7,193 bases of DNA. It comes from a virus (lineage: Duplodnaviria > Heunggongvirae > Uroviricota > Caudoviricetes). The translations under genes were made by a program, and so were the position numbers. The DNA lies in the IMG/VR virus record IMGVR_UViG_2579778894_000025, positions 1 through 7,193 of that record, one strand, 5' to 3'. The notes below the pieces were generated by a model. It made no database searches, was not told the DNA's origin, and was given only the letters and a program-made list of their open reading frames with translations. Shown here one piece after another: positions 1-6,100 of this stretch (positions are counted from its first letter, which is position 1; every line of letters begins with the position of its first letter).

Positions 1-798
1 GTTAATGATTTCATGGATAGCGTCCACCATATTTGGTGTCCACTATTCTCTCAGGAATTTCAGGATCTGCCAGACGGTGCTGAGACGACGCTTACATCTG
101 AACGGGAAACAACAAAGAACCAGATCCGTGTCGCCTTGCCTGGCATTGTTCAGTCATTCGCTCCTGATGCGGTGACGGCGGTTGTACAGCCTGCTATCCG
201 TTACGTTGAAATTGATAACGACGGCAACCGCATTACCAAAAATTACCCATTGCTGGTGGATGTGCCAGTGGTATTCCCGCGTGGCGGAGGCTGTACGCTA
301 ACGTTTCCAGTTAAAGCCGGTGATGAATGTTTGGTGATTTTTGCCGATCGTTGTATTGATTTCTGGTGGCAGAGTGGCGGGATACAGGAGCCGGTCGATG
401 ACAGAATGCATGATTTATCGGATGCGTTTTGTATTGTCGGTCCCCAGTCGCAGGCAAGGAAGATTAGCGGTATTAATACCAGTGCCACACAGTTGCGTAG
501 TGATGACGGCAGCACCTATTTTGAGCTTAATCCTGATACCAGGAAAATTAAAATTGTCGCTCCGGGGGGCCTTGATGTGGTTGCCCCTCTGGCTGATTTT
601 TCTGAGAAAGTAACCATTCATGGCCTGTTAACCTGGATGGGAGGCATGGTGGGGTCTGTTGTTTCTGGTGTGGCTTCAAAAATCACTGGTGCTGTTGAGT
701 TTTTGGGTAGCGTGAAGGCTAACGGCAAGCCAATCGATGATACGCACACTCATGGTGGTGTTCAGCGCGGTGGAAGCAATACCGACGGAGTAAACTGA
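1..798 (+). CDS. Baseplate central spike protein (phage gpV / Mu gp45-like), possibly 5'-partial
   Basis: ORF track 13..798 (261 aa). The frame is open back to position 1 and no Shine-Dalgarno precedes ATG13, so the true start may lie upstream of the window. Central region (…LLVDVPVVFPRGGGCTLTFPVKAGDECLVIFADRCIDFWWQSGG…) resembles the OB-fold domain of gpV-type spikes; Gly-rich C-terminus ends …DDTHTHGGVQRGGSNTDGVN, resembling the His-containing apex of P2 gpV. Stop overlaps next start (TGATG, 796-800). Confidence 0.75.
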   Translation, partial: VNDFMDSVHHIWCPLFSQEFQDLPDGAETTLTSERETTKNQIRVALPGIVQSFAPDAVTAVVQPAIRYVEIDNDGNRITKNYPLLVDVPVVFPRGGGCTLTFPVKAGDECLVIFADRCIDFWWQSGGIQEPVDDRMHDLSDAFCIVGPQSQARKISGINTSATQLRSDDGSTYFELNPDTRKIKIVAPGGLDVVAPLADFSEKVTIHGLLTWMGGMVGSVVSGVASKITGAVEFLGSVKANGKPIDDTHTHGGVQRGGSNTDGVN

Positions 799-1151
799 TG
801 CGATACAGACGTGAAGACGCCGATGGCGATTATACCTTTGGCAGCGGTGATGACACTTGGCTGATTAACTCACCGGAGGCCGTGGCGCAGGCGGTAAAAA
901 CTCGATTCGAATTGTGGTATGGGCAATGGTTTCTCGACACCACCGAGGGGACTCCGTGGATCCAGTCCGTACTCGGTAAGCAGAAGCCGGAAACTTACAA
1001 CCTGGCGATCCGTAAGCGCATTCTGGAAACGCAGGGCGTTAAATCAATCCTCTCTTTCAATACGACGGTGGATACCACGACCCGACGTGTCATGTTTTCC
1101 GCTGAAATCGACACTCTCTATGGAATAACGACTGTTACATCGGAGGCGTAA
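798..1151 (+). CDS. Small baseplate protein (Mu gp46-position; gpW-like role inferred from synteny)
   Basis: ORF track 798..1151 (117 aa). GGAG at 787-790 upstream of ATG798. Start overlaps the upstream stop, and its own stop TAA (1148-1150) abuts ATG1151. Function assigned from position between gpV-like and gpJ-like genes, as in Mu/P2 baseplate modules; the sequence itself is not diagnostic to me. Confidence 0.6.
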   Translation: MRYRREDADGDYTFGSGDDTWLINSPEAVAQAVKTRFELWYGQWFLDTTEGTPWIQSVLGKQKPETYNLAIRKRILETQGVKSILSFNTTVDTTTRRVMFSAEIDTLYGITTVTSEA

Positions 1152-2350
1152 TGGCTCTGAACCTTGATTCTCTCGGTTTATCTGCAAAGGTAACCGCGGA
1201 GGGGATCAGTGCGCCTGATTATCAGACGATACTCAGCACCCTGATTAGCTATTTTCAGCAGATTTATGGCAGTGATGCCTACCTCGAACCGGACAGCAAA
1301 GACGGCCAGATGGTGGCTCTGATGGCGCTGGCGATTCATGATGCCAATAATATGGCGATAACTGTCTACAACTGTTTTTCACCGGCAACCGGCTATGGGG
1401 CTGCACTGACCAGTAACGTGAAAATAAATGGTATTTCACGTAAAGGCGCGACGAATTCTACGGTTGATTTGCTTCTTACAGGAACTGCCGGAACAACCAT
1501 CATTAATGGCAGCGTGAAAGACAGTAATAATGTGATATGGCGTTTGCCTGCTTCAGTGGTGGTCGGCGTGGATGGTACAGTGATGGTGACCGCAAAATGT
1601 TCCGTCAGTGGTGCAGTGGCGGCGCTGGCTGGAACTATCACTGAAATTAATACGCCAACCCGTGGCTGGGTTTCGGTAACCAATCCTGCTGCAGCTACTG
1701 TAGGCACTCCAGCAGAAACTGACGCGGAGTTACGTATCCGCCAGTCGCAAAGTGTTGCGTTGCCATCAATAACCCCATTTGAAGCACTGGATGGCGCTGT
1801 TTCTAATGTTACCGGTGTAACCCGCCACAAACTCTATGAAAACGATACTGGTTCGGAGGACGGCAACGGGTTACCGCCACACTCTGTTGCTGTAATTGTG
1901 GATGGCGGTGATGTAACGGATATTGCTCAGGCTATCAGAGGAAATAAAGGCCAGGGGACAGCCACTCACGGTACAACATCCGTTACGGTTCCGGATAAAT
2001 ACGGCAATCCCCATGTAATCAAATTCTCGCGTTCCAGTGATGTGCCTGTTTATGCCCGGATTAAATTAAAAGTTTTTACGGGTTATACCTCACAGATAGG
2101 GCAGCAGATCCAGCAGGCTATTTCCGACTATATCAATAGTCTGATGATTGGTGATTCGGTCCTTTTAAGTCGCATTTACTCACCGGCGAATCTTGGCGTG
2201 GTGAGTGGCGGGAATGCACGCTATTACGATATTCAGGAACTGACGATTGGGAAATCCCCGGGGGCTTTGTCGTCATCAAACATTGATATCAGATACAACG
2301 AATCTGCGTCCTGTACCCCGGAAAATATCGTTATAACGGTGGAGTCATGA
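1151..2350 (+). CDS. Baseplate J-like protein (P2 gpJ / Mu gp47 family)
   Basis: ORF track 1151..2350 (399 aa). GGAGG at 1142-1146, 4 nt before the ATG. Size and N-terminal character (MALNLDSLGLSAKVTAEGISAPDYQTILSTLISYF…) fit baseplate J family; position after gpV/gp46-like genes. Stop TGA (2348-2350) overlaps next start ATG2347 (ATGA). Confidence 0.75.
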   Translation: MALNLDSLGLSAKVTAEGISAPDYQTILSTLISYFQQIYGSDAYLEPDSKDGQMVALMALAIHDANNMAITVYNCFSPATGYGAALTSNVKINGISRKGATNSTVDLLLTGTAGTTIINGSVKDSNNVIWRLPASVVVGVDGTVMVTAKCSVSGAVAALAGTITEINTPTRGWVSVTNPAAATVGTPAETDAELRIRQSQSVALPSITPFEALDGAVSNVTGVTRHKLYENDTGSEDGNGLPPHSVAVIVDGGDVTDIAQAIRGNKGQGTATHGTTSVTVPDKYGNPHVIKFSRSSDVPVYARIKLKVFTGYTSQIGQQIQQAISDYINSLMIGDSVLLSRIYSPANLGVVSGGNARYYDIQELTIGKSPGALSSSNIDIRYNESASCTPENIVITVES

Positions 2351-3027
2351 GCAAATACACCGAACTAATCACAAACTACCACGCCACCAAACCTAAATTT
2401 CTTGCACATGTTGATCTGATGACCCGGCCACTTATTGATGTTGCGGCTGCCACCAGAGGGCTGATTACTGCATTTGATATTGACTCTGCGGTTGGTGTGC
2501 AACTTGACATTCTGGGATTGTGGATCGGACGTAGCCGTGTTGTCAGCCAGCCTATCTCAGGTGTCTATTTCAGCTGGGATACCGACGGGCTTGGATATGA
2601 TCAGGGGGTATGGCAGGGACCATACGATCCTGATTCAGGATACATGTACCTCAGCGATGAAACTTATCGTGTCATCCTTAAAGCGAAGATTGCGATTAAT
2701 AACTGGGACGGACGGAATGATTCGCTTCCGGCAATTCTTGACGCGGCAACAGCAGGATCCGGACTGCGAATGCAGATAGTCGATAACCATGACATGACGA
2801 TATCGGTCTGGGTCTTTCCTGATACTGATATTTCAGATGTATCGCGTGAGTTAATTGCGGCAATTAAACAGGGGTATCTCACAGTAAAAGCCGCCGGGGT
2901 ATGGGCGGGTGGCATTGAAACACCTTCGGTGGAAACCCCATCGGAAGGCTCAAAATTTTTTGGTTTTGATATGGATAACGAATTCATCAGTGGTTTTGAT
3001 GTAGGAGCATGGGGAGTATTACTCTGA
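2347..3027 (+). CDS. Tail/baseplate protein, gpI-like (Mu gp48 / e14 YmfQ-type, DUF2313-like)
   Basis: ORF track 2347..3027 (226 aa). ATGA overlap with upstream gene; stop TGA 3025-3027 overlaps the tail fiber start ATG3027 (TGATG). Assignment mainly by synteny, immediately upstream of the tail fiber gene as in Mu and e14. Confidence 0.65.
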   Translation: MSKYTELITNYHATKPKFLAHVDLMTRPLIDVAAATRGLITAFDIDSAVGVQLDILGLWIGRSRVVSQPISGVYFSWDTDGLGYDQGVWQGPYDPDSGYMYLSDETYRVILKAKIAINNWDGRNDSLPAILDAATAGSGLRMQIVDNHDMTISVWVFPDTDISDVSRELIAAIKQGYLTVKAAGVWAGGIETPSVETPSEGSKFFGFDMDNEFISGFDVGAWGVLL

Positions 3028-3659
3028 TGACGAAAAATGACTTTAAAGCGTTTGCAACGGATCGAAATGCCAATGTTATATCGCAGGAGGAATGGGAAGC
3101 GTTGCCCGCGCTTTTATCCGGATTTACAGCAGGGAAAGCATCCAGTGCGCAAGTCAATAAGGTTATTCGGCAGGCCAGCTTTATTGCTGCAGCTCTGGCC
3201 CAGTTTGTAAGTGATAAAACGCAACGGGATGTGCTTGATAATGGTGATCTGCCCGGTTTTGTTGAATTGCTGGGATCGGGGTTTGCTGTTGAATACCTGA
3301 GCCGCAAGAATCCGTTTGGTGATATCAAATCGGATGGCACGGTGAAAACGGCTCTCGAAAACCTTGGTTTTGGAGAAGGTGCTAACTGGGTTATGTTACC
3401 TGGAGGAATGATAATTCAGCGTGTTTATCTTGGATTTCCTGTCGGCACCAATGTAAGACACATAACTTTCCCCCGGTCGTTTACAACAACGAACTATTCA
3501 ATCTCAATTAACTGGAATGATATCGGTACTGCAACAACTGAAACACAATCTCCAGCAAATGTGGCGGTTGTTCATCAAACAAAATCATTAACAGGGGCCA
3601 GCATCTGGCAGGCAGGTCCCGGGGGATTTAATGTGGACATTATAGCGGTGGGGTATTGA
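3027..3659 (+). CDS. Tail fiber protein: constant N-terminal part (about 3027-3363) fused to variable C-terminal part inside the invertible segment (about 3366-3659)
   Basis: In-frame ATG3027 (MTKNDFKAFATDRNANVISQEEWEALP…) is preferred over the track's ATG3009 because it overlaps the upstream stop (TGATG) and has GGAG 10 nt upstream. 210 aa. A hix/gix-like crossover site lies at codons 109-117 (…TALENLGFGEG…). Confidence 0.8.
   Translation: MTKNDFKAFATDRNANVISQEEWEALPALLSGFTAGKASSAQVNKVIRQASFIAAALAQFVSDKTQRDVLDNGDLPGFVELLGSGFAVEYLSRKNPFGDIKSDGTVKTALENLGFGEGANWVMLPGGMIIQRVYLGFPVGTNVRHITFPRSFTTTNYSISINWNDIGTATTETQSPANVAVVHQTKSLTGASIWQAGPGGFNVDIIAVGY
3352..3377 (+). other. Site-specific inversion crossover site (hix/gix/pix-like), left
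   Basis: CTCTCGAAAACC-TT-GGTTTTGGAGAA: two 12-bp half-sites in inverted repeat (10/12 symmetric) around a 2-bp TT core, matching the remembered Hin/Gin/Cin/Pin site pattern TTnTCnAAAACC-NN-GGTTTnnGAnAA. Located inside the tail fiber ORF. Confidence 0.65.
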
Positions 3660-3786
3660 TATGTACGTATAGAGCACTAAAGCAAATGGCTTTTTCCCCA
3701 TATCGGAGAAAGAAAAATTTGAGGCATCAGGTCTGTGGCCTGATGATGGTGTAATAGTCAGTGAGGAAGAACATAAAAAGTTATTT

Positions 3787-4089
3787 ATGGATATTCCACC
3801 AGGAAAACAGATTGGAACACTGAATGGAAAACCAGCACTGATAGATATTCCTCAGCCGACCAAAAAGGAATTAATAGCTATTGCTGAAGTTAAAAAATCC
3901 CAATTACGGGAAAAAGCTGACAGTGAAATATCCTGGCGTCAGGATGCTGTTGATGCTGATATCGTAACTGATGAAGAAGCTACAAGTCTCACCCAATGGA
4001 AGAAATACCGTGTGCTGCTGATGCGTGTTGATACGTCAACAGCACCCGATATTGAATGGCCTACGCCTCCGGCAGTTCAGGCCAGATGA
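3787..4089 (+). CDS. Tail fiber assembly protein (Tfa family), apparently N-terminally truncated by an in-frame amber codon
   Basis: ORF track 3787..4089 (100 aa); C-terminus …EEATSLTQWKKYRVLLMRVDTSTAPDIEWPTPP is the conserved Tfa C-terminal motif. The same frame is open upstream to 3673 and encodes Tfa-like N-terminal sequence (STKANGFFPISEKEKFEASGLWPDDGVIVSEEE…), preceded by ATG3661-TAC-GTA-TAG(3670-3672). Confidence 0.7.
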   Translation: MDIPPGKQIGTLNGKPALIDIPQPTKKELIAIAEVKKSQLREKADSEISWRQDAVDADIVTDEEATSLTQWKKYRVLLMRVDTSTAPDIEWPTPPAVQAR

Positions 4090-4663
4090 CATCCGGCGCG
4101 GTGCTGGTATCTGTTGCCATCACCGCGTCAGTGTAATCCAGCACGGCGTTAAGGCGGGTGGTTTCTGCCTGCGTCAGCCTCCGCCCGGCCTGCAATTTCA
4201 GCTGAATCAGACTGATGGAAGCCATTGCTGCATCAATCAGTGACTGGCGCTGTGCTTCTGCCGCTTCGACTGCGGCGCTATGTTGTGCCTCAGCATCGGC
4301 CACCCATTTCTCACCATCCCATTTATCGTATGGCGTTAACGGTGCGAGAGTGGTTGTATTTTCGGGATAGTCGCCTGGTGCTGTGATTTCTTTGGCATCT
4401 CCCGTTTCGGTGTTATAGACAATTTCACCGCGATGGTCTGGTACATATTCCCATGAGTTAAAATCTGCTGAGCGGCAGATAGCATAACCAGCCTTATGTG
4501 TGCCAGGGGCATCCAAACAAGAAAATGCTGGGATACCGACGCCAACAGCAAGATATTCAGTTGATGTAGAAATATATTCTCGTGTTTCACCATCATAATT
4601 ATAAACGGTAATATCTCCCGCCTTTGTGGCGATGAGTTCCTTATTTAATATAGCTTTATCCAT
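4061..4663 (-). CDS. Tail fiber assembly protein (Tfa family, full length), partner of the alternative fiber C-terminus
   Basis: ORF track 4061..4663 (200 aa); C-terminus …RLNAVLDYTDAVMATDTSTAPDVIWPELPEA is the conserved Tfa motif. Start overlaps the stop of the upstream - strand fiber segment (TGATG). GAGGG lies about 10 nt upstream on the - strand. Confidence 0.85.
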   Translation of the reverse strand: MDKAILNKELIATKAGDITVYNYDGETREYISTSTEYLAVGVGIPAFSCLDAPGTHKAGYAICRSADFNSWEYVPDHRGEIVYNTETGDAKEITAPGDYPENTTTLAPLTPYDKWDGEKWVADAEAQHSAAVEAAEAQRQSLIDAAMASISLIQLKLQAGRRLTQAETTRLNAVLDYTDAVMATDTSTAPDVIWPELPEA

Positions 4664-5172
4664 CAGGCAGCCCTCACGATATAATTAAAGGCAATGTTAC
4701 GGGGTCGATTTTCGTTTGCAGTTGGAACAATTCTTGAAGCATCAAGGCCAATCACTTTTGGGTAAACAGCGCCATCTGTTCTTTCTGTCACCATACTTCT
4801 GGTTAAGGAGAAATAACTATTGTTCGTTGAGGGGTTCAAAGGCACTACTGCCCCCTTAAACGAGCCTACTGATTCCCATATTGAATAATTTTCGGTGTTT
4901 ACAGTCTTGAACTCACCATAGATATTACGTATGGCATCGCCCTGAGCGGATAATATTGTTCTCCCCGCATCCGCACTACGCCCATCATCCCAGCCACGAA
5001 TAAATTCACCGCGTAAATCAGGCAATTTATTTGTCGGGTAAGCCTTTGCCAGTTCCGGGTATTCTTCAGCAGAAAAAGCCGCACCATTGCATTTCAGCCA
5101 GCCTGTCGGCGGAGTGGCGTAAGGCCACGGAACAGGCACACCGACAGGTAATGCAGAGCCTTCTCCCAAACC
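4663..5172 (-). CDS. Alternative tail fiber C-terminal variable segment with collar-type end; promoterless gene segment expressed only after inversion
   Basis: - strand frame open from the crossover site; from the site inward it reads GLGEGSALPVGVPVPWPYATPPTGWLKCNGAAFSAEEYPELAKAYPTNKLPDLRGEFIRGWDDGRSADAGR…NIAFNYIVRAA, typical of phage tail-fiber collar C-termini (lambda Stf / P2 H-like ending). The track's Met at 5214 has no RBS and lies beyond the crossover site, so it is not taken as a real start. Confidence 0.75.
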   Translation of the reverse strand, partial: GLGEGSALPVGVPVPWPYATPPTGWLKCNGAAFSAEEYPELAKAYPTNKLPDLRGEFIRGWDDGRSADAGRTILSAQGDAIRNIYGEFKTVNTENYSIWESVGSFKGAVVPLNPSTNNSYFSLTRSMVTERTDGAVYPKVIGLDASRIVPTANENRPRNIAFNYIVRAA

Positions 5173-5186
5173 AACGTTTAAGAAAA
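5161..5186 (-). other. Site-specific inversion crossover site (hix/gix/pix-like), right, inverted relative to the left site
   Basis: Read on the - strand: TTTTCTTAAACG-TT-GGTTTGGGAGAA; 20/26 identical to the left site (hand alignment), with the same TT core and the same downstream GG-GAG-AAG-G coding GEG. Lies 56 bp upstream of the pin start. Confidence 0.6.
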
Positions 5187-5241
5187 TGCAGAGGTAACAG
5201 CTAACTGGCATCATCTCCGGTTTTTATTCAGGGGGATGATC

Positions 5242-5796
5242 ATGCTTATTGGCTATGTACGTGTGTCAACAAATGACCAGAACACAGACCTACAACGTAA
5301 TGCGCTGAACTGTGCAGGATGTGAGCTGATTTTTGAAGACAAGATAAGCGGTACAAAGTCCGAAAGGCCTGGACTGAAAAAACTGCTCAGGACATTATCG
5401 GCAGGTGACACGCTGGTGGTCTGGAAACTGGACCGGCTGGGGCGCAGTATGCGGCATCTTGTCGTGCTGGTGGAGGAGTTGCGCGAACGAGGCATCAACT
5501 TTCGTAGTCTGACTGATTCAATTGATACCAGCACACCAATGGGACGCTTTTTCTTCCATGTGATGGGTGCCCTGGCTGAAATGGAACGTGAACTGATTGT
5601 TGAACGAACAAAAGCAGGACTGGAAGCTGCTCGCGCACAGGGACGAATTGGTGGACGACGTCCCAAACTTACACCAGAACAATGGGCACAGGCCGGACGA
5701 TTAATTGCATCAGGAGTTCCTCGCCAGAAGGTGGCGATCATCTATGATGTTGGCATATCGACTTTGTATAAGAGGTTTCCGGTCGGAGATAAATGA
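5242..5796 (+). CDS. pin: Serine DNA invertase, Hin/Gin/Cin/Pin family
   Basis: ORF track 5236..5796; start refined to ATG5242 (MLIGYVRVSTNDQ…, 184 aa) with GGGGGA 6 nt upstream. Small serine recombinase hallmarks: catalytic Ser9 in VRVSTNDQ, conserved DRLGRS and GRFFFHVMGALAEMERELIVERT segments, C-terminal helix-turn-helix (QKVAIIYDVGISTLYKRF). Strong resemblance to Hin/Gin from memory. Confidence 0.9.
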   Translation: MLIGYVRVSTNDQNTDLQRNALNCAGCELIFEDKISGTKSERPGLKKLLRTLSAGDTLVVWKLDRLGRSMRHLVVLVEELRERGINFRSLTDSIDTSTPMGRFFFHVMGALAEMERELIVERTKAGLEAARAQGRIGGRRPKLTPEQWAQAGRLIASGVPRQKVAIIYDVGISTLYKRFPVGDK

Positions 5797-6100
5797 AACC
5801 GTAGCACGTCGTATGCAAGAACGTGCCACGGCTGGCTGATGGACGTTCGATAGCGCGAGTTTGAATGAAAATCAGCCGGAGATGATTTTACATAATTGCT
5901 ACGGAATTATTCAATAAAGGAATTGCTTGTGTCTGCATGGATTGACCTGAAATATTCCCGAAAATTTCTCTAAAAAACTCGAAAAAAATGGTAACTAATT
6001 GAATGTATTAATATGCAATGGTACGTGTTAGGGATTAAAAGATGAACGTAAATTTATTCAACGCATTAATTTTAAAGGGTTTTATTGTTTGTTGACGAAA

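Follow-up and report, generated by a model that had tools for sequence, protein, structure and literature searches.

A probable Pin-type inversion switch that joins one prophage tail-fibre N-terminus in frame to either of two C-terminal cassettes

The DNA analysed here (the window, the whole stretch of 7,193 nt) comes from a draft Escherichia coli contig of assembly GCA_000690985.1 that begins one base before the window. It encodes baseplate proteins, a tail fibre with two alternative C-terminal ends, two fibre assembly proteins, and a serine DNA invertase. From gene prediction and domain searches, the features are as follows.

13-798, + strand: baseplate spike gene
798-1151, + strand: small baseplate gene
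1151-2350, + strand: baseplate J gene
2347-3027, + strand: gene for a DUF2612 wedge protein
3027-3659, + strand: tail-fibre gene in its present state, 210 aa (constant N-terminal part 3027-3363; gp53-like C-terminal cassette 3364-3659)
3352-3377, + strand: left crossover site, pixL-type, CTCTCGAAAACC TT GGTTTTGGAGAA, core TT at 3364-3365, within the expressed fibre gene
3364-5174: invertible segment, about 1.81 kb core to core, with two C-terminal cassettes arranged tail to tail, each with its own assembly gene
3661-4089, + strand: tail-fibre assembly gene of the gp53-like cassette (Caudo_TAP, E 2e-29 on the 3787-4089 part)
4061-4663, - strand: second tail-fibre assembly gene, TfaE-like, 200 aa, for the alternative cassette (Caudo_TAP, E 1e-31)
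4663-5175, - strand: StfE-like alternative C-terminal end of the fibre, containing a phage tail collar domain (Collar, E 9e-16)
5161-5186, - strand: right crossover site, pixR-type, TTTTCTTAAACG TT GGTTTGGGAGAA, core at 5174-5173
5176-5214, - strand: pin-side leader, MMPVSCYLCIFLN, 13 codons, outside the segment
5242-5796, + strand: pin, Din-family serine DNA invertase, 184 aa (Resolvase, E 1.5e-51; HTH_7, E 6e-12)
5260-5331, + strand: putative recombinational (Fis) enhancer within the first part of pin, positioned from its homology with the enhancer annotated in P1 cin (cin nt 19-90)

Every baseplate gene of the window is an open frame. The fibre ORF most likely starts at the ATG at 3027, where it overlaps the stop codon of the DUF2612 gene before it, and its 210-aa product is an exact match to WP_027663489.1. 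The C-terminus of this protein matches Pfam Gp53-like_C with an E value of 3.9e-5, just under the curated cutoff. The assembly gene that follows carries an amber TAG at codon 4 (3670-3672, ATG TAC GTA TAG), a codon that the relatives L001 and L004 read as TGG (Trp); the amber leaves only a 100-aa ORF from the ATG at 3787. Owing to this codon, the gp53-like fibre may be expressed without its chaperone. On the opposite strand, the TfaE-like gene shares 88% DNA identity with K-12 tfaE. The collar cassette is silent in the present orientation and becomes the C-terminal end of the fibre once the segment is inverted; together with the leader, it forms a 183-aa ORF with an ATG start (4663-5214, - strand).

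The pin gene is full length, and its product is 97-99.5% identical to intact homologues. Identity is 97.3% with K-12 PinE, 81.5% with P1 Cin, and 77.7% with Mu Gin, and an N-terminal YVRVSTNDQ motif contains the catalytic Ser. Nucleotides 19-90 of pin match the annotated P1 cin enhancer at 55/72 positions, compared to 45/68 in the next stretch, a comparison confounded by coding conservation. Two Fis-like G-N13-C 15-mers lie at 5263 and 5312, within the coding sequence of pin and with their centres 49 bp apart. These features are only suggestive of a recombinational enhancer at about 5260-5331. Rfam and tRNA scans of the window returned nothing, and a promoter scan found no excess of sites over shuffled sequence.

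From position 6096 on, the flank is E. coli chromosome (pphA and yebW, 99% identity). The prophage end lies inside the sdsR/ryeA small-RNA locus upstream of pphA, where K-12 homology begins at 6096, 31 nt from the sdsR 3' end. The sdsR gene is split by the insertion, in keeping with the result that no Rfam family reached its gathering score anywhere in the window. The approximately 300 bp at 5797-6095 is AT-rich.

The two 26-bp sites, CTCTCGAAAACCTTGGTTTTGGAGAA on the left and TTTTCTTAAACGTTGGTTTGGGAGAA on the right (- strand), stand in inverted orientation, and the right site is 55 bp upstream of the pin start codon. In each, a 2-bp core separates two 12-bp half-sites whose symmetry is imperfect, and the TT cores are identical. 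The sites match each other at 20/26 positions, with dyad symmetry of 10/12 in the left site and 8/12 in the right. These values, along with the coordinates of the sites, had been given in a sequence-only reading of the window, and every number was correct on recount. A repeat search recovered the sites independently as an inverted repeat (3359-3379 / 5159-5179; 21 nt, 90% complementary, 1779 nt apart). The palindromic invertase-site pattern TTCTCNNAAACCNNGGTTTNNGAGAA, with no more than three mismatches, matched the 7.2-kb window twice, at the left and right sites only, against a chance expectation of 0.00 from 200 dinucleotide-preserving shuffles of the window. The half-site form TTC-N4-AAAC-N / NA / N-GTTT-N4-GAA fits both sites, with the same single departures as in the published pixL and pixR.

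For comparison with known sites, published Din-family sequences were taken from Table 3 of PMC3241671, and the pix sites were checked against the K-12 sequence itself. K-12 e14 has CTCTCGAAAACCTTGGTTTGGGAGAA in stfP and TTTTCATAAACGTTGGTTTGGGAGAA (- strand) in stfE beside pinE, which are the published pixL and pixR. In the alignment that the sequence-only reading had proposed, pixL agrees with the left site and pixR with the right, each at 25/26 positions; the two sites of the window match the hix, gix, cix, mix, and bix sites at 15-21/26. By our reading of the dix consensus (PMC3241671), the single-base differences from pixL and pixR lie where the half-sites are variable within the family, in their four-base stretches.

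Both sites lie within coding sequence. The codons over the left site read LENLGFGEG in the fibre ORF, and those over the right site read FLNVGLGEG in the - strand ORF 5214-4663; in each, the core TT supplies the second and third bases of a codon, CTT (Leu) in the left site and GTT (Val) in the right. Because the codon phase is the same, either of the two C-terminal cassettes continues the reading frame of the fibre's constant N-terminus (112 residues). We computed the inversion by reverse-complementing 3364-5174 at the core. The result is an uninterrupted fibre of 282 aa, compared to the present 210 aa, with no stop and no frameshift. It consists of constant residues 1-112, a junction Leu, and GLGEGSALPVG... 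through the collar-domain cassette, and the core-straddling codon is CTT, which comes from the left side. The earlier claim that exchange at the core joins the constant N-terminus in frame to either C-terminus is thus borne out, as the fusions of 210 and 282 aa are both open. The reciprocal junction yields an ORF of 111 aa.

The exact 282-aa fusion has no entry in a collection of 15 billion proteins, and the reciprocal 111-aa ORF and both native ORFs have exact matches there. For the source strain, one orientation of the segment is recorded, from a single draft contig. We considered whether the 111-aa match is the inverted isoform of the source strain and rejected this, as the contig in question is a different, P2-like prophage with the same pin-proximal module. 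The analysis is of value for annotation. In databases, the silent cassette is a free-standing 183-aa "phage tail protein" (WP_077758032.1) and the fibre is a "hypothetical protein" (WP_027663489.1), and neither entry reflects that these ORFs are two states of one switchable fibre gene. The alternative product is the 282-aa fusion, which no gene caller would report.

The opposite orientation occurs in other E. coli genomes. L004 (E. coli WS0115A) and L005 (LWY6) carry the same two cassettes in the orientation opposite to that of the window, and the window aligns to them in blocks at 3300-3379 (+), 3359-4707 (-), 4960-5179 (-), and 5159-5868 (+). The blocks switch strand at 3359-3379 and 5159-5179, so the inversion breakpoints coincide with the repeats. 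When the window is inverted in silico, it aligns colinearly with both loci. A third locus, L003 (E. coli 97-3250), shares its backbone with the window, at 97% identity across 3.3 kb, and has the collar cassette in the expressed position; it matches the 500-nt in-silico inverted junction in one piece at 99.4%. We counted junctions across 5,426 complete E. coli genomes, taking as a match at least 80% of each 500-nt query. The predicted inverted left junction is present in 60 genomes, the predicted inverted right junction in 81, and the native left junction in 3.

The point of exchange can be bounded from natural variation in the sites of seven loci. The base at site position 12, C in the left site and G in the right, always goes with the flank. 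At position 20, the gp53-like GANWV cassette has T and every other cassette has G, and this base always moves with the cassette, on either side. Natural crossover is therefore confined to site positions 13-19 (TTGGTTT). Judged from these variants, the interval is consistent with exchange at the TT core, which it contains, and does not narrow to 2 bp.

Several features tie the locus to the Din family. A serine recombinase with a resolvase domain, an active-site Ser, and a C-terminal HTH is encoded beside the segment. The segment is bounded by two inverted 26-bp sites with identical 2-bp cores, and it occurs in both orientations with breakpoints at the repeats, a result that holds across genomes rather than within the source strain. 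As expected of an invertible tail-fibre cassette, the site is inside the fibre ORF, and one N-terminus is provided with alternative C-termini that have cognate assembly genes. We conclude that the sites and pin very probably (probability about 0.93) constitute a Pin-type (Din-family) inversion switch that acts on a prophage tail-fibre gene and is the system known from the e14 P segment. That the sites are placed in a coding motif that keeps fusions in frame is already known for the fibre switches of Pin, Gin, and Cin, and we add nothing new to the mechanism of the switch.

Work on Hin and Gin has established that mechanism: a Fis-bound enhancer and two 26-bp sites occupied by invertase dimers form an invertasome, cleavage with a 2-bp stagger at the core gives phosphoserine-linked ends, and subunit rotation and ligation then invert the segment, in a reaction that requires Fis and supercoiling (PMC3798978). 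The e14 P segment inverts experimentally at these repeats to give in-frame chimeric genes, with PinE, PinQ, or PinR as the recombinase (PMC12529663), and both orientations of the segment coexist in K-12 cultures (PMC4272514). By analogy, Pin dimers would bind the two 26-bp sites lying in inverted orientation and, with the Fis-bound enhancer in Pin's own gene, would cut both with a 2-bp stagger at the central TT. Half of the complex would then rotate, and religation would leave the 1.81-kb segment (3364-5174) inverted. In the present state, the constant 112 residues would continue into the gp53-like cassette (210 aa), and in the inverted state they would continue into the collar-domain cassette (282 aa), each cassette being followed by its own assembly-protein gene. 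We infer the cleavage chemistry, the dependence on Fis and the enhancer, and activity in the source strain from the behaviour of the family.

The peptide encoded at the fibre joint can be explained by the site. The sequence-only reading had placed the crossover sites inside a conserved G-F/L-G-E-G coding motif. The overlap with the motif stands, except for the final Gly, which the site does not cover and in place of which other cassettes have Ala. What is conserved is the peptide N-[L/V]-G-[L/F]-G-E, the exact footprint of the 26-bp site, and it is followed by at least six different cassettes, beginning GANWV, GSALP, GAKLN, GAPAI, ARYVI, and AAKRN. Across 14 site copies, variation within the 26 bp is limited to three single-base differences, all of which change the residue and none of which is synonymous: position 20 (T/G, F/L), position 6 of the right outer half (A/T, I/L), and position 12 (C/G, L/V, left versus right flank). 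The codon just past the site is GGT, GGC, GGA, GCC, or GCG (Gly or Ala), and third positions are thus invariant inside the site and variable right after it. As conservation stops at the edge of the site, with no synonymous change inside, the constraint is on the DNA site. The codon comparison of the 14 copies gave no evidence pointing to a constraint on the motif at the protein level. From this comparison, the conserved fibre-joint peptide is the translation of what we predict to be the Pin binding site. It illustrates a general rule, in which the peptide at the fibre joint is a translated recombinase-site footprint, with a phase common to the e14, Mu, P1, and P2-like systems.

The codon pattern also bears on the idea that the repeats are not a recombinase site but a by-product of a peptide, G-F/L-G-E-G, that the fibre structure requires where its tip begins. 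As this idea would have it, the two arms both lie in coding sequence and specify similar peptides, and the motif recurs in several cassettes. However, the similarity ends exactly at the 26-bp edge without synonymous differences inside, and the outer half of the right site is conserved even though it is in the 13-codon leader, outside the fibre. Furthermore, the sites are dyad-symmetric and match experimentally defined pix sites, and the breakpoints of natural rearrangements fall at them. We consider this explanation highly improbable, and protein-level homology as the sole basis of the repeat was rejected on the synonymous-site pattern. Less improbable, yet still doubtful, is that the locus is a frozen relic: the sites and pin would be recognisable in a defective prophage, and the inversion would serve no phage-related function, being silent or merely tolerated. 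The TAG at codon 4 of the assembly gene that serves the expressed cassette fits such decay, as do a truncated pin in E. coli 97-3250 (L003, 5930-6196) and a frameshifted one in LWY6 (L005, 4867-5423). K-12 e14 is itself cryptic, and the remainder of the prophage is absent from the source contig. Weighing on the other side are the full-length Pin, close to its intact homologues, the intactness of both sites, and the open baseplate genes of the window, as well as the occurrence of closely related fibre constant regions in induced phages, e.g., vB_EcoM-611R5. Crypticity is in any case no bar to inversion, since e14 still inverts (PMC12529663, PMC4272514). Given the amber codon and the damage often seen to pin in related loci, the prophage may be on its way to becoming cryptic.

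A third alternative accepts the inversion and places its relevant output elsewhere. The leader keeps an ATG-started ORF open into whichever cassette lies beside pin (183 aa now, 111 aa once inverted), and the K-12 equivalents of these ORFs are named stfE and stfE2 (PMC12529663). On this account the ORF beginning with MMPVSCYLCIFLN, rather than the long fibre, is what matters, and inversion would release a free gp53-like domain of 111 aa that keeps other phages from adsorbing. In its favour, the reciprocal junction is in frame with an ATG start, the exact 111-aa protein is encoded in another E. coli, beside pin in a P2-like prophage, and StfE2 of K-12 e14 is reported to lower T2 adsorption (PMC12529663). 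Yet an open frame is the automatic outcome of a cassette that is open through the site, and the published StfE2 effect was obtained by over-expression from a plasmid (PMC12529663). The promoter scan found no promoter-like site serving the leader ORF, GGAG directly abuts the first ATG with zero spacer, and the leader varies between loci (YLC, YFC, or YFF; L or I). Thus, neither the promoter scan nor the comparison of leaders among loci gave positive evidence for separate expression or an anti-phage role of this ORF, and we regard the account as distinctly unlikely. If it were true, the 111-aa gp53-like protein could protect the host, and the locus would be a defence toggle as well as a host-range switch. 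Equally unlikely, in our estimation, is the broader proposal that the 13-codon leader (5214-5176, - strand) is a genuine second start that turns the parked cassette into a free receptor-binding domain.

Some observations concern the pin-proximal module and its surroundings. L004 (2674-5421), which has an e14/Mu-like backbone, and the P2-like locus L011 (GCA_044915445.1, DBBPFO010000041.1; 5407-9166) share with the window the pin-proximal half-site, the leader, and the gp53-like cassette. In L011, the partner site TTCTCAAATACC TT GGTTTAACGGAC is inside a 611-aa H-type fibre gene, reads ...YLGL..., and has its core at codon position 2. The presence of one module in DUF2612-type, e14/Mu-like, and P2-like backbones means that pin plus cassette is common to unrelated tail modules; to judge from the sequences, it appears to move between them as a unit, by exchange at the same site. 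An inverted repeat brackets pin (5210-5230 / 5866-5886; 21 nt, 81% complementary, ATCATCTCCGGTTTTTATTCA / TGAAAATCAGCCGGAGATGAT), homology to the pin loci of other prophage types stops near 5868, and a terminator-like hairpin lies at 5203-5222, just upstream of the pin start. The repeat and hairpin may mark the edge of a mobile pin module, or they may be due to chance. In 97-3250 and LWY6, where pin is damaged, the fibre may be fixed in one orientation, although other Pin-family invertases of the same cell could still act in trans.

Among named systems, the e14 P segment with Pin is the closest in organization. The sites occupy corresponding places among the genes and agree in TT core and codon phase, and the order is the same: constant part of the fibre, cassette, tfa, tfa, cassette, pin. 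At 88-93% DNA identity, e14 has homologues of the TfaE-like gene and of the collar-type StfE cassette, and the segment is about 1.81 kb in the window compared to 1797 bp in e14 (PMC12529663). In contrast, the window backbone comprises a spike, baseplate J, and a DUF2612 wedge protein, where e14 has jayE and ymfQ, and DNA homology in the constant part of the fibre is limited to the last ~64 nt (3300-3363), plus ~22 nt past the core. The two also differ in chromosomal location (sdsR/ryeA-pphA for the window, icd for e14), in the expressed gp53-like cassette and its tfa, which have diverged from K-12 stfP and tfaP, and in one base of each site.

The G segment of Mu (Gin, gix) and the C segment of P1 (Cin, cix) resemble the window in that the crossover site is in fibre gene S, between Sc and Sv, and the sequence records of both phages annotate crossover points inside the fibre gene, between constant and variable parts. 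A separate assembly gene, U or U', accompanies each cassette, the invertase lies alongside, and the core has the same codon phase. Mu gix reads IQNLGLQE in both S and S', and P1 cix reads IQYLGLRE and ILNLGLRE; in each phage the core starts at codon position 2. The window sites differ from gix and cix in sequence (17-20/26 identical), the invertases are 78-82% identical, and the core is GA/TC in Mu versus AA/TT in the window. The Mu and P1 segments are also larger (3-4.2 kb), and P1 cin points toward its segment. Salmonella Hin/hix shares with the window a Din-family invertase, 26-bp sites with an AA/TT core, and an enhancer within the invertase gene (putative in the window), and the left site matches hixL at 21/26 positions. 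Unlike the window, however, Hin flips a promoter rather than swapping coding ends, and hin is inside the invertible segment.
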